This document shows, piece by piece, positions 2,927-41,131 of a stretch of 64,000 nucleotides of DNA. Below the pieces are notes generated by a model that saw nothing but the letters and a program-made list of their open reading frames with translations, did no database searches and was not told the DNA's origin. How positions within the stretch are numbered: position 1 is the first letter of the stretch; every line of letters begins with the position of its first letter. The stretch covers positions 2,535-66,534 of the forward strand of contig QZKO01000045.1 in the NCBI GenBank assembly GCA_003599505.1, given 5' to 3'. The translations under genes and the position numbers were made by a program. The DNA is from Nitrospiraceae bacterium. GTDB taxonomy: Bacteria; Nitrospirota; Thermodesulfovibrionia; UBA6902.

Positions 2927-2927
2927 T

Positions 2928-4022: not shown

Positions 4023-4782
4023 GGACCTCTTCTCTTGTGAAAACAAAGTGGCAGTGGTCACCGGCGGCGCCGGTCTTATCGGCAGGGAAATTGCCCTCGG
4101 CCTGTATAATTTCGGGGCAGAAGTCTATGTCGCCGACATAAACAGGGCAAATGCTGAAGGGATACTGAATGAAAAAACAGGATTTCTCCAACTTGATATA
4201 ACGTCGGAAGACGGCATAAACAGAGCTTTCTCTCAGGCAATCAGGGAAAAGGGCAGAATAGACATCGTGGTAAACTGCGCATATCCGCGGACAGAGGACT
4301 GGGGCGAGAAATTCGAGAACATAAAATTCACCTCATGGAAAGACAACGTCAATAACCACCTCGGGGGTATATTCCTTTGCTGCCGCTCCGCCGCGGAGCA
4401 GATGAAAAAGCAGGGAGGCGGGGTCATTATAAACCTGGCGTCGATATACGGCATCAGCGCGCCTGACTTTTCAATCTATGAAGGCACCGACATGACCATG
4501 CCCGCCGCTTACTCGGCAATAAAAGGCGGGATAATAACACTGACAAAATATATTGCCGCCTATTACGGGAGGCACAACGTACGGGCGAATGCAATCTCAC
4601 CCGGTGGGATTTATGACAGGCAGCCCGAAGCCTTTGTCAAGAAATATTCTGCAAAAACCCCCCTCGGCAGAATGGGAGCGCCTCAGGAAATTGTCGGCGC
4701 TGTGATCTATCTCGCCTCTGAAGCTTCGTCCTATGTGACAGGTGAAAATCTTCTGATTGACGGCGGATGGACCGCCTGGTAA
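4012..4782 (+). CDS. SDR-family NAD(P)-dependent oxidoreductase (PtmA-like)
   Basis: 'VAVVTGGAGLIGREIA' Gly-rich cofactor-binding site; 'YSAIKGG' is the catalytic YxxxK. Overlaps the upstream gene. Confidence 0.8.
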   Translation: MNYRDLFSCENKVAVVTGGAGLIGREIALGLYNFGAEVYVADINRANAEGILNEKTGFLQLDITSEDGINRAFSQAIREKGRIDIVVNCAYPRTEDWGEKFENIKFTSWKDNVNNHLGGIFLCCRSAAEQMKKQGGGVIINLASIYGISAPDFSIYEGTDMTMPAAYSAIKGGIITLTKYIAAYYGRHNVRANAISPGGIYDRQPEAFVKKYSAKTPLGRMGAPQEIVGAVIYLASEASSYVTGENLLIDGGWTAW

Positions 4783-4809
4783 GAAACCGTCAGGAAATAT
4801 AATAGACAC

Positions 4810-5751
4810 ATGAAAGTGCTGGTTGCAGGCTGCGGCTCCATCGGGCAAAGACATGTCGGGAATCTTATTGATTCGGACAGAATTCACGAAATAATCCTCT
4901 ATACGCAAAACAGAGACTGCGTCAAAGAACTGGATGACAAAGGGAAAATATGCTTCACCCCTTCTCTTGACGGGGTCACAGCCGATTTCGCTGTTGTTGC
5001 CAACGAGACCTGTAAACATATTGATACGGCCATTCAATTGGCTGAAAAAGGCCTTCATTTGTTCATTGAAAAACCGCTGTCGCATAATTTTGACGGAATT
5101 GATGCGTTAAGAGAGGCCGTTGAAAAAAAGGGCATAAAGACATTCGTCGGTTACAACTTGAGGTTTCTTAAGGCAATGGAATATATAAAAGAGCGGCTTT
5201 CAGGAGGCATTCTCGGTAATCTGTACTTTGTCAAAATAGAAGTAGGGCAGTATCTGCCTTTCTGGAGAAAAAACCGGGATTACAGGGAATCGTACAGTTC
5301 AAGCGCTGAACGCGGCGGGGGAGTTGCACTCGATTTGTCACACGAACTTGACTATATGCGCTATCTTTTCGGCGACCCGCTCAGATGGAAGGTTTTCCGC
5401 ACAAGGACCGGCGAGCTCGACATAGATGCCGAGGACATGTTTGAAGGCCTTTATCTTTATGAGGAAAAATTCATCTGTAATGTGCATATGGATTATCTGC
5501 AAAAAGATGCGACCCGCACTCTCAGGATTAAAGGCAGTAAGGGCGAGCTTTTTTGCGATTTCCTAATGGGAGAGCTGACGGTTTCCGCTGGAAATGCAAG
5601 GACTGTCATAAAAGACGCTTTTATATTTGATATTAATAAAACATACCGTGACGAGATGGACCATTTCATGGATATTGTTGAAAAAGGCACGGAGCCGGCT
5701 GTCACCCTTGAAGACGGGATAGCCGTATTGAAACTGATAAAGGACAGTTAA
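4810..5751 (+). CDS. Gfo/Idh/MocA-family oxidoreductase (PtmF-like)
   Basis: N-terminal 'MKVLVAGCGSIGQRHV' Rossmann motif and an 'EKPL' motif typical of the Gfo/Idh/MocA family. Confidence 0.75.
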   Translation: MKVLVAGCGSIGQRHVGNLIDSDRIHEIILYTQNRDCVKELDDKGKICFTPSLDGVTADFAVVANETCKHIDTAIQLAEKGLHLFIEKPLSHNFDGIDALREAVEKKGIKTFVGYNLRFLKAMEYIKERLSGGILGNLYFVKIEVGQYLPFWRKNRDYRESYSSSAERGGGVALDLSHELDYMRYLFGDPLRWKVFRTRTGELDIDAEDMFEGLYLYEEKFICNVHMDYLQKDATRTLRIKGSKGELFCDFLMGELTVSAGNARTVIKDAFIFDINKTYRDEMDHFMDIVEKGTEPAVTLEDGIAVLKLIKDS

Positions 5752-5786
5752 CGTGTGCATTCCTTCAGAGCAATCCGGGGTTTCCC

Positions 5787-6494
5787 ATGTATAACAATAA
5801 TGTAATACTGTGCGTTATTCCAGCCAGAGGAGGTTCAAAGGGTCTTCCGGGAAAAAACACGAAACACCTCCTGGGGAAACCCCTTATCGGCTATACGATT
5901 GAGCAGGCGCGGCAGTCAAAGTATATTGACCGTATCATCGTCTCTACTGAAGACCCCCTGATAGCAGAAGTCGCAAAAAAGTTCACTGCTGAAACGCCGT
6001 TTATTCGGCCCAGGGAGCTTGCGGAAGACAACAGCAGCACGCTTGATGTGCTTGTCCATGCAATCAGGTGGATGGAGGAGAGGGAAAACTACAGGTTTGA
6101 TATCCTGGTGCTCCTGCACGTAACGACTCCTCTCAGATATCCTGAAGACATTGACAATTGCATTTCCCTCCTTGTAGATGAAAAAGCTGATAATGTTTTT
6201 TCGGTAACTGAAGCCCAAAGGAACCCTTATTTCAACATGGTGGAAATCAGCGGTAATAATGAAGTAACGCTTGTAAAAAAAGGGGTCTTCGCCACAAGAC
6301 AATCTGCCCCTGAGGTCTATGACATGAACTCCTCGATATATGTCTGGTGGAAGGATACATTCAAGGCGGAAAAAGGACTCTTCCTCAAGAAGACCAGAAT
6401 ATATACAATGCCAAGGGAAAGATCCATCGACATAGACGGGCCTCTGGACTTCAGGATCGCCGAGATGCTGCTGCAGGATAAGCAACTATCTTAA
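5787..6494 (+). CDS. neuA: CMP-nonulosonic acid synthetase (acylneuraminate cytidylyltransferase family)
   Basis: 'VILCVIPARGGSKGLPGKNTKHLLGKPLIGYTIEQA' is the canonical CMP-NeuAc/CMP-Leg synthetase N-terminus. Confidence 0.85.
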   Translation: MYNNNVILCVIPARGGSKGLPGKNTKHLLGKPLIGYTIEQARQSKYIDRIIVSTEDPLIAEVAKKFTAETPFIRPRELAEDNSSTLDVLVHAIRWMEERENYRFDILVLLHVTTPLRYPEDIDNCISLLVDEKADNVFSVTEAQRNPYFNMVEISGNNEVTLVKKGVFATRQSAPEVYDMNSSIYVWWKDTFKAEKGLFLKKTRIYTMPRERSIDIDGPLDFRIAEMLLQDKQLS

Positions 6495-6520: not shown

Positions 6521-8011
6521 ATGTTAAGGAAAAAGATATTTATTAACACGGCTGTAAACTCGGGAGGGAAGCTTTTGTCCTTTGCCCTCCAGATATTCAT
6601 TATGACATACCTGATAAAAGTCCTCGGGAAAGACTCTTACGGGGTAGTCGTGCTCGCCCTTGCCCTTGTCGCCAATACCAATATCCTTGAGGCCGGCTTC
6701 GGCCTGTCCGTCACGAAATATGTTGCAGAGTACAAGGCCAGGGGCGACTGGCCGAGGCTTCTTCAGACAATAAACACAAACCTTGTCATCTCCACAATAA
6801 TGGGAATTGTAATGTGTTCCATACTTACGCTTATAAATGAAGTCTTCCTTGAAAAAATATTTACCATTCCGTCAGAGCTTGTTCCCGGCGCAAAAAACAT
6901 GATCAGGGCGCTGATACTGCTTTCAGTCGTCGAATTCTGGTCAGTCAGCCTGATACGTGTTGCAGAGGGGCTTCAGAAGTTTGCTCTGGCCAGGTCTATG
7001 GAGCTTGTCAAATGGTTTCTCAGGGCGGTATTTGTTTTAATAGCGGTCTATGCCGGGTACGGATTAGCAGGAATAGGCGCGGCCTATCTGGCCGCCGGCA
7101 TTCTGAGCCTTGTCGTCGTCTATATAAAGGTCATTATGCAAGACCCGGAGCTCAGGTTATCCATATCGCTCAGCAGCAAGGAATCCTTCAAACAGCTCTT
7201 CGGCTTCAGCATCTGGATATTCCTGTCAAAAGCGTTCGCGTTCATTTCATACAAAATCGATACAATAGTTATCGCCATATTCCTCCCGCCGGCAAACCTT
7301 GCCTACTACAGCATAGCTTTCAAGGTATACGAGATTCTAAGTTACGGCATCAACCTGATATCATATGCGATCATGCCAGTGACTTCTGAACTTCAAGCCG
7401 CAGATAATCGGACTAAATTAAGACTGCTGTTTCACAAGTCTTCCAGGTATACATTGATGTTTATGTTTCCCATTTTGGCCTTTTCTTTTTTATACGTGTT
7501 TCAGGTAATAGAATTCTGGGTTGGAGAAGACTTCGGCATTTCTGTAATGTTGGCCCAAATGTTTATCATTTCCCTGTTCTTCGTAGCTCTTTCTTCAAGC
7601 GGGGCAGTTATGATGATAGGACTTAACAGGGTAAAAGAACTTGTCGTTTATGCCGGCGCGGGCTCCTTAGTAAATCTGACAGTCAGTATTGTAATGGTAA
7701 AAGAAATAGGAGTAAAGGGGGTTCTGGTCGGGACCCTGGTCGGGTCGGTCATAATTGCTTCCGGATATTTATACAGGATGCTGAGATTGTTTGAATATCC
7801 CTTCCTGCTTTTCCTGAAAGACATTCTCGGCTGGCCGTTGACAGGAGCAGCAATACTCGGGAGCGTCCTGTCCGCGCTGCCCGGTAATTTTTACATCGGG
7901 GTATCAGTGACTCTCATTTATATGGCACTGTCTGTTCTCTTATTTTCCGACAGGGATGACATCCGGGCCATAATGAACCGAAGGGACCGGGACATTAAGT
8001 TTTCATCATGA
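6521..8011 (+). CDS. Polysaccharide flippase (Wzx / MOP superfamily)
   Basis: Hydrophobic membrane protein of about 496 aa with the typical 'MLRKKIFINTAVNSGGKLLSFALQ' N-terminus of polysaccharide-biosynthesis flippases. Confidence 0.8.
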   Translation: MLRKKIFINTAVNSGGKLLSFALQIFIMTYLIKVLGKDSYGVVVLALALVANTNILEAGFGLSVTKYVAEYKARGDWPRLLQTINTNLVISTIMGIVMCSILTLINEVFLEKIFTIPSELVPGAKNMIRALILLSVVEFWSVSLIRVAEGLQKFALARSMELVKWFLRAVFVLIAVYAGYGLAGIGAAYLAAGILSLVVVYIKVIMQDPELRLSISLSSKESFKQLFGFSIWIFLSKAFAFISYKIDTIVIAIFLPPANLAYYSIAFKVYEILSYGINLISYAIMPVTSELQAADNRTKLRLLFHKSSRYTLMFMFPILAFSFLYVFQVIEFWVGEDFGISVMLAQMFIISLFFVALSSSGAVMMIGLNRVKELVVYAGAGSLVNLTVSIVMVKEIGVKGVLVGTLVGSVIIASGYLYRMLRLFEYPFLLFLKDILGWPLTGAAILGSVLSALPGNFYIGVSVTLIYMALSVLLFSDRDDIRAIMNRRDRDIKFSS

Positions 8012-28886: not shown

Positions 28887-31247
28887 ATGAGAATATACGA
28901 ACTGTCCAAAAAGATAGATATCAGCAGCAAAGAAATAATCGCCAGGCTTGCAGGCATGGGCATTCGGGTAAAGTCGCACATGTCGAATATCGACGATGAC
29001 GTCATGGGTAAGCTGTCGGATTTTTTTGCGAAAAAAGAAATACCCGGGAAAGAGAAGCTCCCTCCTGCTCCAGGGAAAGAAGCTCCGGTTAAACCGGCAG
29101 GGAAGCCCCATGTCGAGAAACCGCGGAAAGAACAGCCGCCGGCAGAAGTCATGCCGCAAAAAGAAAACCGGGCTGCTCAGGAAACAAAGGCAGGAGAAGT
29201 GGAAGAAGCTGTTTCAGAAGCGCCTGCGGTCCTCCATAAAAAGGCGGGGCCACCGGTGGCCGAAGAAGACGAGGTCATCGTCCCCGACAGATTCAAGAAA
29301 GAAATAGAGCGCTCGAATATTGCAAAATTCAAAGCCAAACCCGGAATGCAGCGCGCATTTGATTCCATCCGCAGGGTAGATGTTGCGAAGAAGCCGCAGG
29401 ACTTTAAACCTCATTTCAAAAAACACGATAAAAGGTCTCATATCCAGCGGGTCGAACCCGCTCCGCCCCCCCTTACAACACAGCCGAGGAAACGGGTCAT
29501 CAAGTTTCAGGAAGGCACTTCGGTAAAGGAATTTGCCGAGCTGATCGGACAGAAAAGCAACGAGGTCATTAAGAAATTTATGGAGCTCGGCTCCATGCCC
29601 ACTATCAACCAGCCTGTGGACGCGGATGCGGCGCAGATTGTCGCGGAGTCCTTCGGTTTAAAAATCGAGCTTGCAAATATCGAAACCGAGGAATCGCTCC
29701 TTGAAGAAGCAAAGGTCGAGGAAGCCGCTCTCAGTCCGCGTCCGCCGATTGTCACCATAATGGGACATGTCGACCATGGTAAAACCACCCTTCTGGACGC
29801 GATAAGACAGACAAGGGTGACCGAGACAGAGGCCGGGGGAATAACCCAGCACATCGGTGCATATAAGGTAAAGCTGAAAAACAGGGAAATAACCTTTCTC
29901 GACACCCCCGGGCACGAGGCGTTTACCATGATGAGGGCCAGAGGCGCAAAGGTAACGGATATTGTCGTCCTTGTTGTCGCCGCCGACGACAGCGTCATGC
30001 CCCAGACCATAGAGGCGATCGACCATGCAAAGGCCGCTAACGTCCCCATTGTAGTGGCGATAAATAAAATTGACAAACCTGATGCGAATGTTACAAAGGT
30101 CAGGAATGAACTTTCACAATACGGCGTGGTTTCAGAAGAATGGGGCGGACAGAACATCTTTGTTGAGGTTTCAGCGAAACAGAAAACAGGCATTGAACGC
30201 CTCCTCGAGATGATCCTGCTCCAGGCGGAAGTAATGGAGCTGAAGGCGAATTACAACAGACCCGCAAGGGGTACAATCGTTGAAGCAAAACTCGATAGAG
30301 GCAGAGGACCGGTAGGCACGGTCCTGGTCAATGCAGGCGAGCTTAAAACCGGAGACCCTTTCCTTGTAGGGACGGTTGCCGGCAGGGTCAGGGCGCTGAT
30401 CGATGACAAAGGCAAAAAGATCGAAAAAGCCGGCCCTTCAACTCCTGTCGAGGTTATAGGGTTTCCCGAGGTGCCCCAGGCAGGCGACATCTTTATTGTA
30501 ATGGAAGACGAAAGAAAAGCAAGGCAGATAGCGATTAACAGGCTCCAGAAGCAGAGGACCGCGGCAGCCACGCATATGAAGAAATTAACGCTGGACCAGC
30601 TTTATGAAAAAGTTAAAGAAGGCGAAGTGCGGGACCTGAACGTCATCATAAAGGCGGATGTTCAGGGCTCGGCGGAAGCGGTCAGGGATTCGCTTTCGGC
30701 CATCTCTCATCCGCAGGTCAAGGTAAATGTTATCCACGCGAGCGCCGGCGGCATTAATGAATCCGACGTCATGCTGGCCGCCGCGTCAAATGCGATTATT
30801 ATCGGGTTCAACATCCGGCCTGACGCGAAGGCGTCAGCGCTTGTGGAAAAAGAAGGCGTCGACGTCAGGTTATACAACATAATCTACGAGGCCATCGAAG
30901 ATGTGAAGAAGGCGCTCGAAGGACTGCTCGAGCCGACTATAACTGAAAAGGTCATCGGCAGGGCCGAGGTCAGAAGCCTCTTCCATATATCGCGTATCGG
31001 GACCGTTGCCGGATGTTACGTGACCGACGGAAAGATTTCCCGCAGCAGCTCAGGAGTCAGGGTGATAAGAGACAACGTTGTCATTTACGAGAGCAGACTT
31101 TCATCCCTGAAAAGATTCAAGGATGATGCAAGAGAAGTGCAATCAGGGTTTGAATGCGGGATCATGGTGGAAAATTTCAATGACCTCAAGGTCGGCGACA
31201 TACTTGAAAATTATGTCAGGGAAGAAGTCGCCGCGAAACTGGAATAG
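28887..31247 (+). CDS. infB: Translation initiation factor IF-2
   Basis: GTPase G-domain '[14 protein letters not shown]...DTPGHEAF...NKIDK' preceded by a K/E/P-rich N-terminal region. Confidence 0.95.
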
Positions 31248-31275
31248 CCCCCCTGGACCCTCTTGATTTTATAAA

Positions 31276-31557
31276 ATGATCGTCGGCCTCCTTACACTTG
31301 ATCTACACATATTTGAATCACATTCTTTAAAAGAAAAACGGTTTGTCATCAAAAGCCTTATCGACAGGATAAAAAACAAATTCAATGTCTCGGTAGCCGA
31401 AGTCGACGCCAACGACCTCTGGCAGAGGGCCGTAATCGGCATAGCCTGCGTCTCGAATGAGACAGTGATGGTCAATAAGGTTTTTGAGCAGATCAAAAAC
31501 CTGGTCCTGGGCACGCATTCCGTGGAATTAATCAATTCCACAACGGAGTTGTTGTAA
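31276..31557 (+). CDS. DUF503 protein (YlxP-like, conserved infB-downstream gene)
   Basis: 'MIVGLLTLDLHIFESHSLKEKR' is typical of DUF503, which normally lies between infB and rbfA. Confidence 0.8.
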   Translation: MIVGLLTLDLHIFESHSLKEKRFVIKSLIDRIKNKFNVSVAEVDANDLWQRAVIGIACVSNETVMVNKVFEQIKNLVLGTHSVELINSTTELL

Positions 31558-31588
31558 TGAAGTTAACGATCCTCCTCTATTGAAAAAA

Positions 31589-34096
31589 TTATCCTTCTAA
31601 TCTTGCCTCAAGCTCCGATTTGAAATCTCTATAAGTCTTTTCTTTCAATTTCTTAAAGAATAAATCATAACTCATTGGAGATAGAAATTTGAAATAATAT
31701 TTATGTTCCTGTTGCAGTTCATTAAGCCTGTTAAAGTGTTTTCTTGAATATTCAAGTTTTTTCCTATTCTCATCCCCTGATATTCCTTCATATGCTTTAT
31801 CATCTTTAATTTCTACCACAAGAATATCATTCAATATTTTTATGAAAAAATCAGGATTAAAACTCCCCTGCTTAGGATGCTCGCCTTTACGCCAGGAATA
31901 ATCAATCTTGTAAAAGCCTATATCAGGAGATTTAAACCATGCATCAATTATTCTGGAATTTTCTTCTTTGATTAGGCCCTTGATAAATTTTCGTTCAGGC
32001 TCATAAGCAGCCAATATTATATTCAGGTGCGTTTTGAAGTTGTATCTGTTTGCCACTTTTATAATAGCTGATTTTGGTAAACTCTCATCTTCATCAAGTT
32101 CTTTCAAAAGCTTAATATCTTCTGCTTCTCCTAAAATCAAAGAGTTGTCATCAAAGAATATTGTCCCATCACGTCTAAGCGACCCAATGCCAATGCTATT
32201 TTTCTTAACTTTAGTAGTACTAATTTTATATGGTTCATTTGATTTTGGGACTATCCTTGGGAAGATACTACTCTTTCTCTTAATAACGCCAAATGCGCGC
32301 AATGCTTTCAATCTATTTTCCTCACTGATAAAACTTGTCTTATCTTTTATTTCCTTTAAAGATTGTTGGATAACTTGCTCAATCCGTTTTTTAGTCCATA
32401 TTTCACTGTAGTTAGTTCCTGCATCCTGATCAAAGATATACAGCCGGTTAAAGATATCATTAGCAACATTTTTCACGGGATGCATATTCCTTGCAATATA
32501 ATATTCCCGTTTTTCTCTAAATCCTGTTATTACTGTCTCATATTCTGTTTCTTCTGGTACGATTGCATCTTGACTTGAAAAAGTTATATATCCTTTCTTG
32601 AGCAACTCAAATTCGTCCTCTTTTGGATACTCCTTATTTTCTCCTATGACCTTCTCATAATCAATCTGGTATAAATCAAAGTTGTAGTTCTCTTTCTTAT
32701 TTACAGGATAAGAATGGATTCTTTTCTCAATCTCAAGAACTTCATCTACCAGGTGTTTGATACTGCCTGACCATTTATCATGATTGAAAACTGTGACAAC
32801 TGGCTGATCTCCCTTATAGACTTCAGGTATCCTTAACCCTCTTCCTAAGACCTGCGCAATAAGAAGTTTTGAATTAAACGCCCTTTCCTCATGTGGAACA
32901 ATTTGAAAAACATTTTTAACATCCCAGCCTTCGGAAAGCATACTGACAGAAGCAATCCACTCTACAGGATTGTCTTTATCGTCTACCCTTCGCAGAATCG
33001 GGATATTGTTCTTATGTTCATTGGCAGAAGTAACAATTAAAACCTTCTCTGCCGCTTTCTCTTTGCTGATCTTCTCCTGTTTAGCAAGAAAAGTTATCAG
33101 CTTATCAGTCACTCGTTTACAGGCTGCTATGTTCTTTGTAACAAGGATAGTTATGGGTTTTACTTTCCGATATTTTATTTTCTTGTTTTCAATATGATTT
33201 TCGTAAATTTTCTGAAACTTCTCGTCCTCGTTTCCTGATGAGTCTTCAGCTACATAACGGATGCTTTTAACAAACTTTGACTCAATAGAATCTCTCAAAG
33301 AAAAGCGATGGATTACATCCGTGAAATAGTCATCTCCGATGTAGCAGGTACCTGAAAGGTTCACGATAAACCTGAATCCATATTTAGTGTCAAGCAGAAA
33401 TTCCTTCCACTTTTTGAGCGCAGTATCCGATGGACTCATAAGGTGATGAGCTTCATCGTTCAAAATGAGTGTTCGCTCCCCTTCCCCTACAAGGCTGTCT
33501 TCAATTGCTGATTTGGTATTTATGTAAGTAGCGTGAATATTCTCAATGCATATATCGCCCTTTTGAATGGTGTTAGATGCATTGATAATGCGTGGATTGA
33601 TTATTTTGGAATCAGCAGGCAAAAGTTCTTTTAAAGTTTTATCGGCTGATAGTGTTCTGAATTTTTCTGTTAAACCGGTCTCAATAGTATTTGACGGGCA
33701 GAGGACTAAAACCTGATCAACTGCGCCCTCTGCAAGCATAAGACGTGCAATGCCGTACATCACATAGCTTTTGCCTGTAGCCGTAGCATGCTCCAAAGAA
33801 CACGAAAGTTTATCAGGCAATTGCAGATGGGTTACAAAATCATCAATCGATGAATACTTCTCCTGAAGCTTTGGATTTTTGTGGTAGTTTTCTTCTACTA
33901 AATCCATGAGGCTTTTGTATTCACCGCCTAAAAAGTAGCGCAACGTCTCCCTGATTGCCTCTTTTTGATATTCCCTATTCTCACAGAGAGCATCTAAAAA
34001 AGCTTCATACTTGTTTGGGTCAAACCTTTTGGGGTCATAGTTGGGAGATATCTTGAGGACTAAATCTTTGTTTTGAAAAGTTTGACGGTCAAGCAT
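31589..34096 (-). CDS. res: Type III restriction enzyme Res subunit (SF2 helicase + PD-ExK nuclease)
   Basis: Walker A 'ATATGKSYVM', DEAH-box 'LILNDEAHHL' and a C-terminal 'NPDFFIKI...LVVEIKDDK' PD-(D/E)xK motif. AT-rich. Confidence 0.8.
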   Translation of the reverse strand: MLDRQTFQNKDLVLKISPNYDPKRFDPNKYEAFLDALCENREYQKEAIRETLRYFLGGEYKSLMDLVEENYHKNPKLQEKYSSIDDFVTHLQLPDKLSCSLEHATATGKSYVMYGIARLMLAEGAVDQVLVLCPSNTIETGLTEKFRTLSADKTLKELLPADSKIINPRIINASNTIQKGDICIENIHATYINTKSAIEDSLVGEGERTLILNDEAHHLMSPSDTALKKWKEFLLDTKYGFRFIVNLSGTCYIGDDYFTDVIHRFSLRDSIESKFVKSIRYVAEDSSGNEDEKFQKIYENHIENKKIKYRKVKPITILVTKNIAACKRVTDKLITFLAKQEKISKEKAAEKVLIVTSANEHKNNIPILRRVDDKDNPVEWIASVSMLSEGWDVKNVFQIVPHEERAFNSKLLIAQVLGRGLRIPEVYKGDQPVVTVFNHDKWSGSIKHLVDEVLEIEKRIHSYPVNKKENYNFDLYQIDYEKVIGENKEYPKEDEFELLKKGYITFSSQDAIVPEETEYETVITGFREKREYYIARNMHPVKNVANDIFNRLYIFDQDAGTNYSEIWTKKRIEQVIQQSLKEIKDKTSFISEENRLKALRAFGVIKRKSSIFPRIVPKSNEPYKISTTKVKKNSIGIGSLRRDGTIFFDDNSLILGEAEDIKLLKELDEDESLPKSAIIKVANRYNFKTHLNIILAAYEPERKFIKGLIKEENSRIIDAWFKSPDIGFYKIDYSWRKGEHPKQGSFNPDFFIKILNDILVVEIKDDKAYEGISGDENRKKLEYSRKHFNRLNELQQEHKYYFKFLSPMSYDLFFKKLKEKTYRDFKSELEARLEG

Positions 34097-34100
34097 AATT

Positions 34101-34613
34101 TCATTTCACCTCTGACCTGAAATCAGCTTTGTGTATACCCGCTTGTATTCTTTTTCTTGCTTCTTCAAAAGATTTCGTATCAGTTGAAGGAGAAAATTGA
34201 ACTATCAGATTGTATTTCTCTCGTAACCGCTTAACATTATGATAAAACTCTTCTTCTGAATAAAAATCTTTGAAAGTTTCATGTAACGATCTTGCTTCAT
34301 GTATTAATACTGTAAAATTCTTAGCAGCAAATAGGTGGTCTTTCGACTTTTTATCGTGTTCTAAAAGAATGTTTAGGATCGAAACTATACCTGAAAATAT
34401 AGTAACCCACGAAATCCAATTAGGCATTCCTAAAATCAAGGCAAAGGCACTCAAAACTGTAATTGCTGGCGGTACAAATTTATACCAAAAAGCTTTTCTG
34501 GAAAGCTTTTTCTCTATAATATAATGGGTTTCGGCAGTATAATTAGAATCTTCCTGAATCTGGTTACATTCTGCTATTAAGTTTTCAATTTTATTATTAT
34601 TCATGGTAAGCAC
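34101..34613 (-). CDS. SLATT-like 2-TM effector protein
   Basis: 170 aa with an N-terminal helix, a central pair of TM helices ('FVPPAITVLSAFALILGMPNWISWVTIFSGIVSILNILL') and C-terminal helices, the topology of SLATT domains. Overlaps the SMODS gene by 17 nt and ends 4 nt before the res start. Confidence 0.55.
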   Translation of the reverse strand: MLTMNNNKIENLIAECNQIQEDSNYTAETHYIIEKKLSRKAFWYKFVPPAITVLSAFALILGMPNWISWVTIFSGIVSILNILLEHDKKSKDHLFAAKNFTVLIHEARSLHETFKDFYSEEEFYHNVKRLREKYNLIVQFSPSTDTKSFEEARKRIQAGIHKADFRSEVK

Positions 34614-35547
34614 TTACGGGAAATGGAGCATCAAAAAGCTTTCTCCATGCCTCAATGGCTTCATTGTCACTCATAGCAAAAGTTTTTTTACAATGCTCAG
34701 CGATCTTATCAAACAACGTCGAGAGTCCTTGTTTTTCGGTTATAGACATATATCCGTCAGAAGAAGGAGATTTGCTTGCAGGTATATTTGCGGCTTTTAA
34801 AACTTCATCTTTACCCAGCAAGAAAAAATTATAAACTAAACTTGGATAATTAATTTGCCATTTTTGTTCTTTATAATAGTTAATTATAATTAAGATCAAA
34901 GATGCTGCTATCACTTCAAGATGATAAGATTTCATCATAGGGAATAGATTTCTTTTAGCAGCCTTAAGTATTTTAATTATAGGGATGAGATACCCATCAC
35001 TATTTTCATTTGATGATGCGATATGTTCCGCATCATAGTCATAATCAGCTATGACCCATTTATTATTTTTAGGAATCCAGTAACCTCTCCCTACCGGAAG
35101 AGTCGAAGTTCCATCAGGAGCTTTACCTATTTGATCAAGATACGCAGGAACAAGCTCAACTTTTACATTATCTTCATATTCAAAAGTTATTGTGGGATTA
35201 TCAGTCTCTACACCAAGTTTTTCATACGTTCCATGCTCAGTTACAATATCTTCTATCTTCTCCAGTGCATCTTCCGGTTTTATACCACCAGAAGGCAACC
35301 AGTTATAGAAGCTTCCTAATATAACCAATATATCAATATCAAAAATATCTTCCGACCATGGCTGTATTCTTGTCTTTCTTTGCAATGATCCGATCAATTT
35401 CGTCTCAATGGTTGAATCATATGATTCAATCCATTCCCTGATTGCATTGTGATGTGTTGTTACCTCTTCTTGGAAACTTTGGCTTAACTCAAGTTTTGAC
35501 TTGAACAGATTAAAAGCTTGAGTTATATTTAGAGCCATATTTATCAC
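34597..35547 (-). CDS. SMODS-family nucleotidyltransferase (CD-NTase-like second-messenger synthase)
   Basis: Pol-beta-type NTase signature '[23 protein letters not shown]' (GS-x14-DxD) and third acidic strand 'KVELVPA'. Overlaps the mod stop by 4 nt (ATGA). Confidence 0.65.
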
Positions 35548-37522
35548 TTCCTCCCAAAATCTTTTAAACTTTTTATTTCCCGCTTCTCATTCCCAAATAT
35601 ATCAATGTAAATAATCATGACTTGCCCTTTGACTTTATCGTCAACAAACCTCACCTCATAGTCGTTCTTCTTTAAATCCTCTGCGTAAAAAACTTCGTCA
35701 AGGTCAAAAACTTCTCCGTCAAAATCATAGTCCAGCATGACCATTGAAAGTGTCTCAAGGTTGGCAAATTCAACAGGTTTGCGGGAGATAATTCTGCTCT
35801 CAAACTTTTCAATCTTAATGACGCATTCTTTTATCTTCTGATTCAGCAGATCAGGATTTTTAGGTTTATCCAGATAATATTTGCACTCGACTGTCGGCAC
35901 CTGAACAAAGTCAAATCCTACAGCATCCACCGTATCATTGACATCCATTTCACTTACCGGTTGTTTTATCTTGGTAAATCCACGATTATGGATTTCCTCA
36001 ATAATGGAATAAGGGATGCGGAGAACAAAATATTTTGATTTTCCCTTAGCAATATAATCTTCAAGGAATTGTACCGAGGCAGCGGGTACGACGATGAAAA
36101 AGCGCCTGCCGATTTTGTCTCCAAGATACTTGTGTAGATCATCAATAAAGCCCCTGTCTAACATGGCATTTTTATATTTCTGGTAATTGAAGACAAGGAC
36201 GCTGTCCTCTCCAAGATAGCCATCGAGTTCAATCTTTGAAATCTCATGTTTTTCATCTCGGCACTGAAAGAGCTTTAATGCAAAGTCCCGATACTCCTCC
36301 CATGGAAGTCCTTTAAGCATTTTGTAATCGTAAAGACCTGCATTATAAAGAGTGAAAGGGTTACACTGCTTGCTGAATTTCTTTTTTGGATTCTCAAGGT
36401 CTTTGCTTTCACCAATGTTCAAAAAACGCTTTTGCATTGTATAAATTGCCAGCTTTCCACAGTCCACACCGATCCAACTCCTGCCGAGTTTTTCTGCAAC
36501 AGCAAGGGTAGTTCCTGAACCGGCAAAGCAGTCAAAAACAAGGTCGCCGGGGTTTGAAGAGGCTTTGATGATGCGTTGGAGCAAGGCTTCAGGTTTTTGG
36601 GTAGGGTAGCCAACCTTTTCAGTAGAAGTCGGGATTTGTTGAAAAGACATAATATCGTCCCAAACATCTCCGATAGCTTTTCCTTTTTCCATCACTTCAT
36701 CTAAATAACGTCTGCCACCTCTCCCGTCAAAATATTTCCTGCCGTCCTTATCTACTTTGTTGAATCTATCTATATATTCTTGTCGATGCTGGACGGCGAG
36801 TTTATTAAACATAAAGTCGTTGTTTTTAGCATAAAACAATAGAACATCATGACCTCTAATCCAGTTTTCAGCCTGCGTTTTAAATCCAGAGAGAACGCGA
36901 GTGTCCCAAACTACTTCTCTCTGGAAATGTTGTTCACCAAAAACCTCGTCTAAGAGAATCTTTATGTAGTGCCCTTTTTTTTCATCCAGATGCACATAAA
37001 TACTTCCATCTTCGCTCAATAACTCCTTCAAGCCCAAACAAGTCGCTTTCGTAAGAACTCCAGAAACCTCGCCCCTGCAATTTTGTCCTGATATGCTTTT
37101 TGATCCTGACTTCCACGAAACTCCTGCTTTGTTGCAAAGGGAGGATCAATATAAATTAATCTTACGCCCAGTGTGCCGTCAGCATTTTTGAGTTTTCCTT
37201 TATCCTTCATCTGCAAGAGGGTCTTCAACACTTGAAGGTTGTCGCCAAAGATGAGCATGTTTGTCCAACCGTTGCCGTTTTTACCATTCCGGAAGGTTTT
37301 TACTTTCTGCAAAGGCACAGCCATTGTATCAGCAAGGATATCTTCCTCACGATCCTTGTCGGAATAAATTAGCTCGTACTCTTTCTTGGTATCAAAGAGG
37401 AGGGAATGTTTAAGATTATTAAGCTGCGATATGAGGGCGTCTTTATGCTCTTTTGATAGCGGGTTACCTTTTACAAGAAGGCTTACAATTTCTTCAATAG
37501 CATTATTGGATAGTGTTCTCAT
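35544..37522 (-). pseudogene. mod: Type III R-M modification methyltransferase (Mod, N6_N4_Mtase family), disrupted by a -1 frameshift
   Basis: N-terminal fragment 37028..37522 carries 'IYIDPPFAT' (motif IV, DPPF). C-terminal fragment 35544..37037 carries 'YPTQKP...[15 protein letters not shown]' (motif I). The fragments overlap in different frames. Adding one T to the T3 run (plus-strand AAA at 37036-37038) restores a continuous '[24 protein letters not shown]' reading frame. Confidence 0.7.
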
Positions 37523-37672
37523 TTGTTTATTACTAATAGAATCAATTCAAACCTATTATTGGCCCCAATGGGTATAAGATAAGACCTAATACCACTATTT
37601 GTCAATGTTAATTAGGTGTATTGATACATTCACAAACCTTCCTTGTTAATCGCATGATTATGGGGAGGTTAA

Positions 37673-37990
37673 ATGAAAACAAAAGAGCTGATAGGCAAAA
37701 GAATTCAGGAGCTAAGAAAAAGAAGTGGTCTTTCTCAAGAGAAAGTTGCAGAGAAGGCAGATATCAACCCTCATTATCTCAGCCGTATCGAATGCGGCAA
37801 AGAAAACCCCACCCTCGACATGCTCATAAAACTCTCCAATGCCCTTGAAATTGAAATGTGGGAGATGTTTGACTTCGGGCATGTTACCGAAAAGAAGATA
37901 CTTAAAGAATCTCTCCAAACGTTCCTCAAAACCGCTGACGAACCTACCCTCCGCCTCGCCCTGAAAATCATCAGGGCTATTACAAGATAG
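37673..37990 (+). CDS. XRE-family HTH transcriptional regulator (possible controller of the divergent R-M/defence operon)
   Basis: 'LSQEKVAEKADINPHYLSRIECGKENPTLDMLIKLSNAL' HTH_XRE motif. Divergent from mod. RBS 'ggggagg' precedes the ATG. Confidence 0.8.
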   Translation: MKTKELIGKRIQELRKRSGLSQEKVAEKADINPHYLSRIECGKENPTLDMLIKLSNALEIEMWEMFDFGHVTEKKILKESLQTFLKTADEPTLRLALKIIRAITR

Positions 37991-38053
37991 CTTTCTTTCC
38001 CCTATCTTTTTATCACCTGTGATAAAATAACTTAAACGTGACAGGAGGTAATT

Positions 38054-38293
38054 ATGCCGAAAACCATAGAGGCTATTTATGAGGATGGGGTTTTCAAGCC
38101 TATTAAGAAAATCCGCCTTAGAGAACATGAAAAAGTTGAACTGTCTGTACTGACAAAAGCCGAGATTGATGATGTGGCCCGGAAGGCATTAAGCATAATA
38201 GGGATAGGGGGAAGCGGATTGAAAGATACCGCCCAGAGGCATGACGAATATCTTTACGGGAAGAAGCGACATATGCTGAAGAGAAAGAAATGA
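38054..38293 (+). CDS. DUF104-family antitoxin
   Basis: 'MPKTIEAIYEDGVFKPIKKIRLREHEKVELSV' is the characteristic DUF104 antitoxin N-terminus. Its stop overlaps the PIN gene start. Confidence 0.6.
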   Translation: MPKTIEAIYEDGVFKPIKKIRLREHEKVELSVLTKAEIDDVARKALSIIGIGGSGLKDTAQRHDEYLYGKKRHMLKRKK

Positions 38294-38706
38294 TATTTGT
38301 TGATACGGGTGCGTGGGTTGCAATTGCTGATAAAAACGATCAATATGCAAAAGAAGCAAGTCAACAATATACGAGTTTTATTCTAAAAAAGGAGAGGCTT
38401 GTTACATCCAATTTAATCCTTGTTGAAACTTATAATCTCCTTTCACAGACTATAGGGGCCAAAGCTACAATCAGGTTTGGAAATATCCTGAATTCAACCA
38501 ATCTTGTCAGAGTCGAGATCATTACAAAAACAGACTGGGATAGGGGCTGGAAAATTCTTGAGAAATATGATGATAAAGAATTTTCTTTTACGGATTGCAC
38601 AAGCTTTGCTTTAATGGAACGGTTAAAAATAAGAACCGCTTTTTCTTTTGATGCACACTTTGTACAGTATGGTTTTACTAAAATTCCCCCAACGATCCTA
38701 AGGTAA
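38290..38706 (+). CDS. PIN-domain toxin (VapC-like)
   Basis: 'MIFVDTGAWVAIADKND' (first acidic residue) and 'FSFTDCTSFALMERLKIRTAFSFDAHF' (C-terminal acidic residues) of the PIN fold. Confidence 0.8.
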   Translation: MIFVDTGAWVAIADKNDQYAKEASQQYTSFILKKERLVTSNLILVETYNLLSQTIGAKATIRFGNILNSTNLVRVEIITKTDWDRGWKILEKYDDKEFSFTDCTSFALMERLKIRTAFSFDAHFVQYGFTKIPPTILR

Positions 38707-38730
38707 TCCCTTCAATCATTTTACGACGTA

Positions 38731-39228
38731 TCAAGGAATCTCTTCTAATGAACCAACCGGAGAATAAAATCCATAATCAATCATACGGTTCAGGATTTCA
38801 TCGGCCTTTTTGGGATTAACAGCTTTTCTTCTCACTGCTTTTACAAGAATCCCTATTGTGCCTGTCAATTTAATTCCTGATAAACTTGCCTCTCTTCTTG
38901 CTGCCTTATCGTCACATGCAAATACAAAACCTCTTGCTTTTGCAAGAGAAATACAGGAGGCTTCTCCAAAACCCAGTGATACGGAAAGCGATTCAAAGAG
39001 GGCTTTTTCACTCCTGCTGCGAAGTGTTATTTCTTTGAGCCAGCCATTTCTCAAAGCTTCTCTTATTCTGATAAGCTGGTTGAAGCCTGCAAGTACACCC
39101 TTAGTATTTTCAGCAGACACAAAGTCTGTAATATATGCATTATTTGCGTATAAGATTTTAATTATATCAAGGGAATCCGACAGGGCAAAATTACTCAGGA
39201 CACAATTGTCGAAAATTATTTCAGGCAT
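38731..39228 (-). CDS. DUF3368 / PIN_3-family nuclease-like toxin
   Basis: 'IIFDNCVLSNF...GEASCISLAKARGFVFACDDKAAR' matches COG2405/DUF3368 PIN-like proteins. Confidence 0.65.
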   Translation of the reverse strand: MPEIIFDNCVLSNFALSDSLDIIKILYANNAYITDFVSAENTKGVLAGFNQLIRIREALRNGWLKEITLRSRSEKALFESLSVSLGFGEASCISLAKARGFVFACDDKAARREASLSGIKLTGTIGILVKAVRRKAVNPKKADEILNRMIDYGFYSPVGSLEEIP

Positions 39229-39532
39229 TTACTGAATCCTGAGCAATCTCATCCAGGTCCTGTATTTTAAGAGAGATATGATGCTCTTTCAGGTAAAGCC
39301 GCGCGCTTTCAGGATCAATGCCCAGAATTTCCGAAAGCTTTCCAAGACTGATGAAGCCTTCCTTATACGCCTCAATCGCAATCAATTTTCTATGTTCAAG
39401 AGAACTCCTCTTTTTATAAGTAATATCCACAGACTCCCTTACAAGCTCTCCGAGAGATTTCCCCTCTTTTCTTGCATAAGTTTTTAATTTTTTATGCTGT
39501 TCATCAGTTAGTATTATATTGGTCCTTTTCAT
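39221..39532 (-). CDS. RHH + UPF0175-family antitoxin (partner of DUF3368)
   Basis: N-terminal ribbon-helix-helix 'TNIILTDEQHKKLKTYARKEGKSLGELVRESV', then C-terminal UPF0175-like 'AIEAYKEGFISLGKLSEILGI'. Overlaps the toxin gene by 8 nt. Confidence 0.6.
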   Translation of the reverse strand: MKRTNIILTDEQHKKLKTYARKEGKSLGELVRESVDITYKKRSSLEHRKLIAIEAYKEGFISLGKLSEILGIDPESARLYLKEHHISLKIQDLDEIAQDSVNA

Positions 39533-39544
39533 ACCGCCTCCGGC

Positions 39545-39568
39545 ATATATGTGTAATTATATGTGTAA
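39545..39568. promoter_or_regulatory. Perfect tandem direct repeat TATATGTGTAAT x2 immediately upstream of the RHH antitoxin gene (candidate operator)
   Basis: Read directly at 39545-39556 and 39557-39568, 13-36 nt upstream of the antitoxin start (39532, minus strand). Confidence 0.45.
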
Positions 39569-39789
39569 TATAGCATTGCCTGGAATAGAGAGTCAATCCG
39601 GATTTTTAATTATCTTCCAGTCGTTCTGTCCATACTTTCCCTCAATTCATTTTTTAAATATGCTACAATTAAAACACATCAATTAATGTATTTGGCATTA
39701 ACATGAAATCAGGTAAAAATTTCTGAATTCCCGATCAAGCCGGGAATGACGGCCTATCTAAGGGTTAATGACTGAAGCGAGAGGAAACC

Positions 39790-40167
39790 ATGCATCCATA
39801 CAAACGCTCGGCGCGTGTCGGTGACCTGATAAGGGAAGAAATCGCCGACATTATAATGAACAAGATCAAGCATAAAGACCTCGGTTTTGTCACTGTTACC
39901 GGAGCGAAGGTAAGCGACGATTTGAGGAACGCAACAATATACCTGAGTGTTCTGAAATATGAAGACGCAAACAAGACCCTGCGGAAGCTCAATTCATTGT
40001 CGGCATTAATTAAAGGCGAACTCGGCAGGAGACTGAAGATGAAGTACGTGCCGGCCCTTGCTTTCAGAATCGACGAATCAATCCAGTACGGCATGAAAAT
40101 AGACAAATTGCTTGATGAAGTTAAATCGGAAAGGAGTCACCCTGACGAAGATGAAGATCTCTTCTAA
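39790..40167 (+). CDS. rbfA: Ribosome-binding factor A
   Basis: 'RSARVGDLIREEIADII...LGFVTVTGAKVSDDLRNATIYLSV' is canonical RbfA. Confidence 0.9.
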   Translation: MHPYKRSARVGDLIREEIADIIMNKIKHKDLGFVTVTGAKVSDDLRNATIYLSVLKYEDANKTLRKLNSLSALIKGELGRRLKMKYVPALAFRIDESIQYGMKIDKLLDEVKSERSHPDEDEDLF

Positions 40168-41131
40168 GCTTCTGAATATTGTTAAACAGAACAAATCTTT
40201 TATTATTGCCGGGCATATTAACCCCGAAGGCGACGCAATCGGCTCGGCGCTGGCGCTGGCCCTCGGATTAAAAAAAATAGGGAAGAAAGATATCTGCGTG
40301 CTTAGCAGGGACGGTGTGCCGGAGACACTGCAATTTCTGCCTTCCGCGAAACTGATAAAAAAGAGACCTCCTGATAAAAAGTACGACGTCCTGTTCATTG
40401 TTGACTGTAACACACCTGAAAGGACGGGATTCAGGGAGCTTAAAGCCGGGAATACGGTAATTATAGACCACCATATTCCGCCTGCCGATGCCGGCAAATC
40501 GGAATTTTACAGGACCTTGTCCGCTGCCGTCATTGACCCGGGCGCTGCCGCGACGGGGATGCTCGTATACAAGTTCCTTTCCGCACTCAAGGTCCCGATA
40601 GACAAAGATATTGCCACAAATTTATATACCGCGATACTGGTGGATACCGGGGGGTTCAGATATTCAAACACATCTCCTGAATCTTTGATGATGGCGTGCC
40701 ATCTGGTCGGGGCGGGAGCAAGGCCCTGGGATATTACAAAAGAAATTTTTGAAAGCATCCCTTATAAATCGATGAAGCTTCTGGGGCTTTCGATGGCAAC
40801 CCTCGATAAAAAAGACAATATAGCGTGGATTACCGCGACGAGGGAGATGTTCGAAAAGACCGGCACCACAGCCGAGGATTCTGAAGATTTCGTGGATTTT
40901 CCGAGGAAAGTGAAGGGCGCCGAGGCAGCGGTCTTTTTCAGGGAAGATGAAAAAGGTGTTTTTAAACTCAGTCTCCGCTCAAAAGGGAAAGTGGACGTGC
41001 AGAAAATCGCCGAAGGCTTCGGCGGCGGCGGGCATTTCGCGGCAGCGGGGTGCCGGATAAAAGGAACCTTGCGGGAAGTGCAAAGAAAAGTCCTTACAGC
41101 CGTCAGGAAAGCAATTAAGGAAGCAACCTAA
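40151..41131 (+). CDS. nrnA: DHH/DHHA1-family phosphoesterase (NrnA-like oligoribonuclease/pAp phosphatase)
   Basis: 'FIIAGHINPEGDAIGSALAL...IIDHH...GGGGHFAAAGC' are DHH and DHHA1 motifs. Start chosen at the internal ATG at 40151. Confidence 0.8.
   Translation: MKISSKLLNIVKQNKSFIIAGHINPEGDAIGSALALALGLKKIGKKDICVLSRDGVPETLQFLPSAKLIKKRPPDKKYDVLFIVDCNTPERTGFRELKAGNTVIIDHHIPPADAGKSEFYRTLSAAVIDPGAAATGMLVYKFLSALKVPIDKDIATNLYTAILVDTGGFRYSNTSPESLMMACHLVGAGARPWDITKEIFESIPYKSMKLLGLSMATLDKKDNIAWITATREMFEKTGTTAEDSEDFVDFPRKVKGAEAAVFFREDEKGVFKLSLRSKGKVDVQKIAEGFGGGGHFAAAGCRIKGTLREVQRKVLTAVRKAIKEAT

Follow-up and report, generated by a model that had tools for sequence, protein, structure and literature searches.

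A predicted minimal CBASS pair between the mod and res genes of a Type III restriction-modification operon

Organization of the operon

A 64,000-nt stretch of a Nitrospiraceae genome (contig QZKO01000045.1, positions 2,535 to 66,534; hereafter, the window) contains a Type III restriction-modification (R-M) operon in which the genes for a SMODS nucleotidyltransferase and a small SLATT membrane protein lie between the methylase gene mod and the nuclease gene res. A model given only the sequence had proposed this arrangement (hereafter, the original prediction), and open reading frame (ORF) calling confirmed its gene set and coordinates: every ORF is present, on the minus strand, in the order mod N-fragment, mod C-fragment, SMODS, SLATT, res. 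The mod N-fragment (37028-37522; 164 amino acids) carries the catalytic motif IV, DPPF, and matches the PADLOC MTase_III and MTase_II profiles. The mod C-fragment (35544-37037; 497 amino acids) matches Pfam N6_N4_Mtase (E = 1.6e-37) and contains the S-adenosylmethionine (AdoMet) motif FAGSG and a variable target-recognition region. Downstream follow SMODS (34597-35538, in a frame open from 35547), encoding a predicted signal synthase of 313 amino acids; SLATT (34101-34604, in a frame open from 34613), encoding a SLATT_4 protein of 167 amino acids that is a predicted membrane effector; and res (31589-34096), whose intact frame encodes a Type III restriction subunit of 835 amino acids.

As predicted, the pair lies between mod and res in the orientation of both, and its junctions are tight or overlap; all junctions in the operon are 8 nt or shorter. 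Some details of the junctions required correction. The mod stop codon is TGA at 35546-35544, and its overlap with the upstream GTG start reads GTGA, not the shared ATGA first proposed. SMODS almost certainly starts at ATG 35538, 5 nt past the mod stop and with GGGAGG in front, because this start yields a 313-residue database protein (P0001, 100% identical) and homologues agree. SLATT most likely starts at ATG 34604, because this start yields the 167-residue protein P0241 and the PADLOC profile begins at ORF residue 4; given this start, SMODS and SLATT overlap by 8 nt (ATGAATAA) rather than by 17 nt. SLATT does end 4 nt (AATT) before the res ATG, and a GAGGTG ribosome-binding site precedes res. 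No terminator-like hairpin was found on the minus strand within the operon. The best promoter-like site, TTGACA-18-TATCTT, lies upstream of mod on the same strand (37576-37605) and matches the consensus at 10 of 12 positions.

A putative signal synthase and its membrane effector

The assignment of the two inserted genes to the SMODS and SLATT families holds in Pfam, PADLOC, and NCBIfam, and together they resemble a minimal antiphage signaling system based on cyclic oligonucleotides (CBASS). The SMODS protein matches Pfam PF18144 (E = 2.9e-17; 63.8 bits, cutoff 26.5), the PADLOC CBASS cyclase profile PDLC00823 over its full length (E = 4e-40), and NCBIfam CBASS_cyclase_b (NF041117; E = 2.3e-32) over profile positions 1-275 of 275. 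We class it, on profile scores, as a diverged relative within the superfamily and not as a CBASS_cyclase_b equivalog because it reaches 112.7 bits where the equivalog cutoff is 200. The Pol-beta nucleotidyltransferase signature is present: G50-S51, D67-I-D69, and E128 (in VELVPAY) are invariant in an alignment of 23 SMODS homologues whose first row, as in the corresponding alignment of 30 SLATT sequences, is the window's own protein. In a search of the PDB, a profile of these 23 homologues retrieved Pseudomonas aeruginosa CdnD (6p82) with E = 1.9e-17 over residues 3-308.

The AlphaFold model of the SMODS protein has a predicted local distance difference test score (pLDDT) of 92.8 and a predicted template modeling (TM) score of 0.90. 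Its top 30 Foldseek matches are all bacterial cGAS/DncV-like nucleotidyltransferases (CD-NTases; TM scores 0.70-0.78), with cGAS afterwards. The best is again CdnD (6p82; E = 3.4e-15, TM score 0.73-0.78), then CdnB, CdnC, CdnG, and DncV, and identity to any solved CD-NTase is about 22%. The modeled chain adopts the full-length cGAS/DncV-like fold, with a nucleotidyltransferase core and a C-terminal helical lobe. From signature and fold together, the enzyme is predicted to make an oligonucleotide signal.

The SLATT protein passes the Pfam SLATT_4 (PF18186) cutoff marginally (29.6 bits, cutoff 27) and the NCBIfam SLATT_4 cutoff (NF033632) with 62.1 bits against 55. It matches the PADLOC 2TM effector with E = 6.6e-18 and scores best, among PADLOC profiles, against SLATT associated with reverse transcriptases (2.4e-20). 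The two transmembrane helices that had been predicted were borne out by hydropathy and by modeling: Kyte-Doolittle averages over 19-residue windows exceed 1.6 at residues 42-61 and 63-82, which puts the hydrophobic helices at about residues 43-61 and 63-81, and the hairpin is bracketed by the basic segments KKLSRK and EHDKKSK. The AlphaFold model (pLDDT 83) is all-helical, with helices 2-57 and 63-81 joined by a short turn. Hydropathy and model point to a two-helix transmembrane hairpin, predicted to have both termini in the cytoplasm.

Besides SMODS and SLATT, the operon contains only mod and res; the cyclase gene stands beside an effector gene, and there are no Cap2/Cap3, HORMA/TRIP13, or other accessory genes. 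By the features tested, the pair is, as far as sequence can tell, a minimal Type I CBASS. The closest experimental reference is a lactococcal plasmid pair of a CD-NTase and a SLATT_4 (PF18186) protein with demonstrated antiphage activity (PMC11381338). Both loci place a cyclase gene before a small membrane effector gene of family PF18186, and the window's pair shares with Type I CBASS the CD-NTase fold and full-length matches to the PADLOC cyclase and 2TM-effector profiles. They differ in that the lactococcal cyclase has an AGS-C domain whereas the window's cyclase is short (313 amino acids) and lacks it, and in that the window's pair sits inside an R-M operon rather than alone. A tblastn search with SMODS found no match among 72,556 plasmids and 50,697 phage records; all relatives of the locus come from uncultured organisms.

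The mod-res junction in sister operons

Whether mod and res are normally adjacent, a question attached to the original prediction, can be answered from Res orthologues with about 79-87% identity, sampled in ten distinct contexts. In six of these (L116, L117, L118-120, L122, L123, L124) mod and res abut or overlap; in the other four the gap holds cargo of other kinds. L110/111/114 carry a DUF3644 protein, with a weak match to the restriction endonuclease-like EC042_2821, and a YhcG/DUF1016 nuclease (L110, 3832-5999). L112/113 carry an OLD-like protein with AAA_15/AAA_21 and TOPRIM domains (L112, 4267-5988), and L115 carries an 822-residue SMC-like ATPase and a 106-residue minimal nucleotidyltransferase (2841-5982). 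L121, whose Res is 85% identical to that of the window, carries a 312-residue protein that matches no Pfam family (4060-4998) and is a candidate defense gene. This protein was also considered as a diverged SMODS and rejected, having neither a Pfam match nor blastp similarity.

The boundaries of the slot are sharp. In blastn comparisons with L110, L112, L115-L118, and L121, homology to the window ends at 35552-35572, the 3' end of mod, and resumes at 34096, the res ATG. Because homology to the sister loci stops and resumes at these points, we delimit the cargo cassette, SMODS plus SLATT, as 35551-34097 on the minus strand. In the 'empty' operons, res is served by a ribosome-binding site within the final codons of mod; in the window, the equivalent site serves SMODS. 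An insertion that broke the coupling between mod and res, one of two scenarios offered originally, is contradicted by the GAGGTG site that the cargo supplies for res and by locus L001, in which all four genes are intact.

L033 preserves what looks like a footprint of cassette entry by recombination in the conserved res 5' arm. Its cargo comprises SMODS-SLATT followed by a YhcG/DUF1016 nuclease gene, and between SLATT and YhcG, upstream of the real res start, lies a 34-nt relic of the res 5' end (ATGCTTAACCACCAGACCTTTCAGAACAAGGATT; L033 5901-5935 versus 7118-7151). In a neighbor-joining tree of Res, the window clusters with loci that carry other cargo, and the SMODS-SLATT loci L033, L001, and L016 are scattered; therefore, cargo has been gained, lost, or swapped repeatedly. 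The cassette is flanked by host genes, co-oriented with them, and variable among homologous host operons, and is embedded cargo in the sense of Payne et al. (2024). We consider it likely, if short of certain, that the locus is a Type III R-M operon whose mod-res junction is used as a slot for a self-contained minimal Type I CBASS.

SMODS-SLATT pairs in other contexts

We collected 109 loci with SMODS relatives from genome and metagenome collections and scanned their neighbors with Pfam. A SLATT gene lies directly downstream of SMODS in about 90 of the 109. The order mod-SMODS-SLATT-res, which the original prediction took to be an unusual architecture, recurs, including in metagenome-assembled genomes (MAGs) from other phyla: it is present in L033 and in two MAGs of Cloacimonadota (L001 and L016) and is partially visible on five short contigs (L032, L034, L042, L058, L059). 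The four genes of L001 are separated by 2, 2, and -8 nt; in L016 SMODS is frameshifted and the R-M genes are intact. L065 has the order mod-res-SMODS-SLATT. For other members of the same SMODS clade, nesting extends to Type I systems, with hsdM-SMODS-SLATT-(extra gene)-hsdS-hsdR in L041, L046, L047/48, L052, L056, L060, and L061/62; in L037-39 the pair heads an hsdR-hsdMS operon, and in L050 it occurs together with McrBC. With this nesting and with the other cargo found in the mod-res gap, the architecture is recurrent rather than unusual. Homologous Res/Mod loci that routinely carry the pair as accessory specificity subunits had been named as a refutation of the original prediction, and this applies in part: such loci do carry the pair repeatedly, as optional cargo and not as a specificity subunit.

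By a hand count over a pattern-selected sample of mostly short contigs, which makes the tally approximate, about 25 of the 32 informative non-redundant loci of the window's SMODS clade lie in or directly beside an R-M operon. Eleven of the R-M-linked loci are visibly flanked on both sides. The seven loci of the clade without an R-M link include L002 (beside cysS and DJ-1) and L023 (beside glyQ), in which no R-M gene occurs within three genes of the pair. Some distant SMODS-SLATT relatives adjoin MmeI-like enzymes. In the neighbor-joining tree built for SMODS, one clade contains Type III, Type I, and housekeeping contexts, and the Type III hosts interleave with the Type I hosts.

A further host operon appears at about 30% identity in L020, L022, L025, and L028, where the pair stands between a helicase-protein gene and a DUF1156 methylase gene. 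The flanking proteins are a helix-turn-helix (HTH) + SNF2-helicase + NOV_C protein of 1,070-1,240 residues and a DUF1156 methylase of 850-1,065 residues; judged by its domains, this operon is a third kind of ATP-dependent modification/restriction-like host.

Could the cyclase be tied to the R-M system that surrounds it? In such a model, analogous to PrrC, the CD-NTase would be held inactive by Mod/Res or would monitor them, firing when restriction is inhibited by a phage anti-restriction protein or when restriction produces DNA ends, so that abortive infection would back up a neutralized R-M system through a direct molecular link. The clade is overwhelmingly found in R-M operons, always co-oriented and usually between methylase and nuclease or specificity genes; activation of the closest solved cyclases depends on a protein partner, and the cassette encodes none; and just this logic is documented for PrrC in the EcoprrI Type IC locus (PMC12707154). 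Functional coupling of restriction and abortive infection, the other scenario of the original prediction, nevertheless fits the comparative data poorly. One 313-residue enzyme would have to read unrelated subunits, since the clade occurs in Type III, Type I, helicase/DUF1156, and MmeI-like systems. The association is not obligatory, as L002 and L023 illustrate; embedded and non-embedded members show no extra domain or difference in length; and the window and L033 retain an intact pair beside a broken mod. We regard a PrrC-like guard as improbable. Equally doubtful, in our view, is the broader version, in which the whole SMODS-SLATT clade would be a dedicated restriction guard: lacking its own phage sensor, the CD-NTase would read the state of the host R-M complex, for instance by sensing stalled or inhibited translocating nuclease-methylase complexes or their DNA ends, and would turn failed restriction into a nucleotide signal for membrane collapse. 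If true, it would give the PrrC principle a generic, signaling-based form shared by Type I and Type III systems and by ATP-dependent restriction systems related to them. The range of hosts, which spans Type III, Type I, housekeeping, helicase/DUF1156, and MmeI-like contexts, argues instead for a self-contained CBASS cargo that is probably independent of the R-M system that houses it.

Outside R-M operons, more distant pairs often have a LexA-like S24 peptidase/HTH gene upstream or lie near an HTH + IrrE/M78 peptidase gene (CapH/CapP-like); the loci are L004, L005, L006, and L093 (upstream gene), L009, L085, and L108 (nearby), and L015, L021, L011, and L030. These neighbors suggest that stand-alone SMODS-SLATT versions may be under transcriptional control linked to DNA damage. 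In a Patescibacteria MAG (L014, 8778-10004), a reverse transcriptase gene (RVT_1, E = 2.7e-21) runs 4 nt into the start of a SMODS-SLATT pair. L045 (673-11472) is heavily rearranged: a gene for a 1707-residue helicase + MTES_1575/DUF559 nuclease splits the mod N-terminus from a C-terminal stub, SMODS, either split or chimeric, is 85% identical toward its N-terminus and 55% toward its C-terminus, and only the last 24 codons of res are left.

The mod lesion and the restriction subunit

The mod gene had been called frameshifted, and in this assembly three-frame translation and alignment with homologues bear this out. At the site GTTTGGGCTTGA (37025-37040, minus strand; break at about 37028-37037) the frame must shift by one base. 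The N-terminal frame ends with ...FLRKRLVWA* at 37028, the C-terminal frame picks up with L(G)LKELLSEDG, and intact homologues read RKRLV[FL]-LRELL without interruption, the break falling between RKRLV and L(K/R)ELL. The N-fragment aligns with the N-termini of the intact Mods of L001 and L016. Because the frameshift leaves DPPF on the N-fragment and the FAGSG AdoMet motif on the C-fragment, neither fragment is, to judge from these motifs, capable of being an active methylase.

Type III Res relies on Mod to recognize its target (Rao et al. 2014). Since mod is broken, methylation and restriction are probably both off in this genome; abolished together, their loss should be harmless to the cell. 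The Res frame itself is intact. Res matches Pfam ResIII (E = 6.6e-16) and SWI2_SNF2, and combines superfamily 2 helicase motifs (ATGKS; DEAH at residue 214) with a C-terminal PD-(D/E)xK nuclease motif (PD...EIK, residues 748-764), encoded downstream of mod on the same strand, as expected of a Type III Res. At 74% identity or higher it has over 120 database clusters, far more than SMODS has, and several bear the name 'type III restriction enzyme' from their source. Because the mod lesion should disable methylation and restriction, the CBASS pair, with its frames and invariant residues intact, would be the only candidate for a working part.

The break has neither the marks of programmed frameshifting nor those of a phase-variation switch. 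No X XXY YYZ slippery heptamer occurs at it, and homologues read through uninterrupted. In mod there is a single long homopolymer, a coding-strand A8 (36975-36982); it lies in frame about 50 nt downstream of the break, which speaks against variation by a simple repeat. The mod lesions of L033, L114, and L115 differ from it in place and kind and look like sporadic decay rather than a switch.

Counting the window, mod is broken independently in 4 of the 14 Type III loci of this lineage that were examined, by single-base shifts and a 47-bp tandem duplication: L033 at about 3190-3200, L114 at about 1985-2035 (the 47-bp duplication), L115 at about 1450-1480 (mod split), and the window at 37028-37037. 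Such repeated lesions may reflect selection to turn off restriction, ordinary decay, or metagenome assembly noise. Elsewhere in the gene, DNA homology to the sister loci is missing from a single stretch of mod, 36609-36985; its flanks are 70-80% identical, the pattern expected of target-recognition-domain swapping among Type III mod alleles.

Decay of the two systems is uncoupled: in the window and L033, mod is broken and the pair intact, and in L016, SMODS is broken and R-M intact. The lesions in the sister loci are mutually independent, which fits the rapid turnover usual in defense islands. They also bear on the idea that the whole operon is a dead remnant of an acquired island, in which SMODS and SLATT have simply not yet accumulated lesions. 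Besides the frameshift in mod, the frequency of independent damage in sister loci (mod in L033, the 47-bp duplication in L114, the split mod in L115, SMODS in L016, the rearranged L045) speaks for it, as does the position of the operon in a low-GC island (0.33-0.40 versus about 0.50) that interrupts the infB-rbfA cluster. Against it, the 5.9 kb show one lesion only; none of res, SMODS, and SLATT is truncated; and one indel seen in a metagenome assembly need not hold for the population at large. The residues that are invariant in the alignments are present in the window's SMODS and SLATT as well, by construction in this case, the window's proteins being the first rows. On balance, a dead relic is an improbable description of the locus, and we return to the reading of the pair as an independent CBASS cargo in a mod-res slot.

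Model for the two defense layers

Under this reading, the operon would be a single transcription unit expressed from a promoter region shared with a divergent XRE regulator, and the cargo would be co-regulated and co-transferred with the R-M genes. Translation of SLATT is coupled to that of SMODS through the 8-nt overlap. R-M would form the first line of defense by cutting unmethylated DNA. When a phage passes it, the CD-NTase would sense an infection cue and make a cyclic or linear oligonucleotide, which the cytoplasmic helical part of SLATT may bind. SLATT would then oligomerize, its hairpin permeabilizing the membrane, and the cell would be killed or arrested before phage release. The restriction and CBASS layers would work independently, and cassettes may move among operons through recombination within two conserved arms, the 3' end of mod and the 5' end of res.

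Several observations weigh against this reading. The promoter call upstream of mod is weak, a consensus match only, and promoter-like sites in the region as a whole show no excess over shuffled sequence. A Foldseek search of the SLATT model against the PDB returned only generic helical bundles (best E = 0.35), and we know of no SLATT protein in which a nucleotide-binding site has been defined. CdnD and CdnC, the closest solved relatives of the cyclase, are activated by HORMA partners, and none is encoded here. The SMODS and Res trees are neighbor-joining trees without support values. The preference of the clade for R-M operons could equally mean a functional link and not hitch-hiking. Finally, the mod frameshift in this MAG may be a variant within the population or an artifact of assembly.

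Membrane toxicity is predicted for SLATT proteins, R-M systems act as addiction modules in their own right, and the surrounding island holds two toxin-antitoxin pairs (AF2212-like/PIN and UPF0175/DUF3368), all of which would suit a membrane toxin and its controller that chiefly stabilize the cassette or island by post-segregational killing and not by sensing phage. Such an addiction module is very unlikely because the full catalytic signature and the fold of SMODS are those of a CD-NTase that produces a signal rather than of an antitoxin, the one CD-NTase + SLATT_4 pair put to the test acts against phage (PMC11381338), and nothing points to a differential stability of the SMODS and SLATT products.

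Relation to known systems

The host operon follows the plan of canonical Type III systems (EcoP15I, EcoP1I): mod precedes res, Mod is a beta-class N6-adenine methyltransferase with DPPF, a variable target-recognition domain, and FxGxG in this order, and Res combines DEAH helicase motifs with a PD-ExK nuclease at its C-terminus. It differs in that mod and res are 1.45 kb apart, separated by the cargo instead of abutting, and in that mod is frameshifted.

The embedding of abortive infection modules in R-M operons is already known for Type I systems, and a Type III slot with CBASS adds a variant. PrrC in EcoprrI (Type IC) is likewise an abortive infection gene nested co-oriented between R-M genes, but it is bound physically and functionally to its host R-M system and triggered by the phage Stp peptide (PMC12707154); the comparative data presented here argue against such an obligatory tie for SMODS-SLATT, the host is Type I there and Type III here, and the effector chemistry differs. 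DarTG2, in a Type I R-M island of enteropathogenic Escherichia coli with the regulator RptR (PMC12255303), and TgvAB, in Vibrio cholerae VPI-2 (PMC11411939), are closer parallels: both are independent two-gene modules between R-M genes, under one promoter and with a gene for a small HTH regulator heading the island (RptR in their case, the XRE gene in the window). Their hosts are Type I, their cargo is different, and they have been validated experimentally, whereas the window's locus is known from its sequence; in addition, the RptR island has its regulator as the first gene, whereas the XRE gene of the window is divergent.

Payne et al. (bioRxiv 10.1101/2024.01.29.577857) surveyed nested defense cargo in Hma, BREX, DISARM, and Type I R-M systems and found 96.7% of it co-oriented with the host. 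The cassette shares with that cargo its nested, co-oriented position and its variability among otherwise similar host systems. Type III R-M is not among the hosts surveyed, and CBASS is unmentioned in the text of that work; the present analysis adds the exact slot, between the mod 3' end and the res ATG, and, as evidence for recombination at it, the res 5' relic of L033. Our search of the available literature turned up neither the Type III mod-res junction described as a cargo slot nor CBASS described as cargo of an R-M operon. Outside that literature, Burroughs et al. (2015; NAR 43:10633), who defined SMODS and SLATT, reportedly noted that such systems are at times combined with R-M, and may already depict mod-SMODS-SLATT-res.

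If the comparative picture holds, defense cargo has a slot in the mod-res junction of a widespread Type III R-M lineage, much as it does at the hsdM/hsdS/hsdR junctions in Type I systems. This would carry 'guilt-by-embedding' to a host system that has not been surveyed, new ground for defense-gene hunting, with candidates at hand in the sister loci: the 312-residue protein of L121, the DUF3644 protein with YhcG, the OLD-like ATPase, and the SMC-like ATPase with its minimal nucleotidyltransferase. With one promoter region and one regulator in about 6 kb, the locus also offers a natural test of independence, synergy, or crosstalk between restriction and abortive infection.

The surrounding island

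The operon lies in an 8.2-kb island (31558-39789) with a G+C content of 0.33-0.40 in surroundings of about 0.50. The island splits the normally contiguous infB-DUF503-rbfA-DHH cluster between DUF503 and rbfA, so that infB and DUF503 (28887-31557) form one flank and rbfA and the DHH phosphoesterase gene (39790-41131) the other. No convincing direct repeats that could be attachment sites flank it, the only candidates being two-copy matches of 14-20 nt that resemble chance; no tRNA was found at the island, and the ORF list and a Pfam scan contain no recombinase or integrase gene between 31.5 and 39.8 kb. For the organism, this is one more horizontally acquired defense island, with restriction probably off. 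Window proteins are 100% identical to those on a 67-kb Nitrospiraceae MAG contig (P0001, P0121, P0241).

Divergent from the operon, a plus-strand gene (37673-37990) encodes an XRE-type HTH regulator of 105 amino acids (Pfam HTH_3, E = 2.6e-14) that matches the PADLOC R-M profiles Control_protein (5.2e-14) and HTH_VI (5.8e-17); it probably controls or represses the operon. The same divergent 105-residue HTH gene and the intergenic DNA are conserved in L121, where the same R-M system holds different cargo. Beyond the regulator, the island carries two toxin-antitoxin-like pairs recognized with Pfam, AF2212-like + PIN (38054-38706, plus strand) and UPF0175/ParD-like + DUF3368, which is PIN-like (38731-39532, minus strand). 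The R-M operon of L121 is flanked by HTH, a small ORF, and PIN, and has a PIN toxin-antitoxin flank in common with the window.

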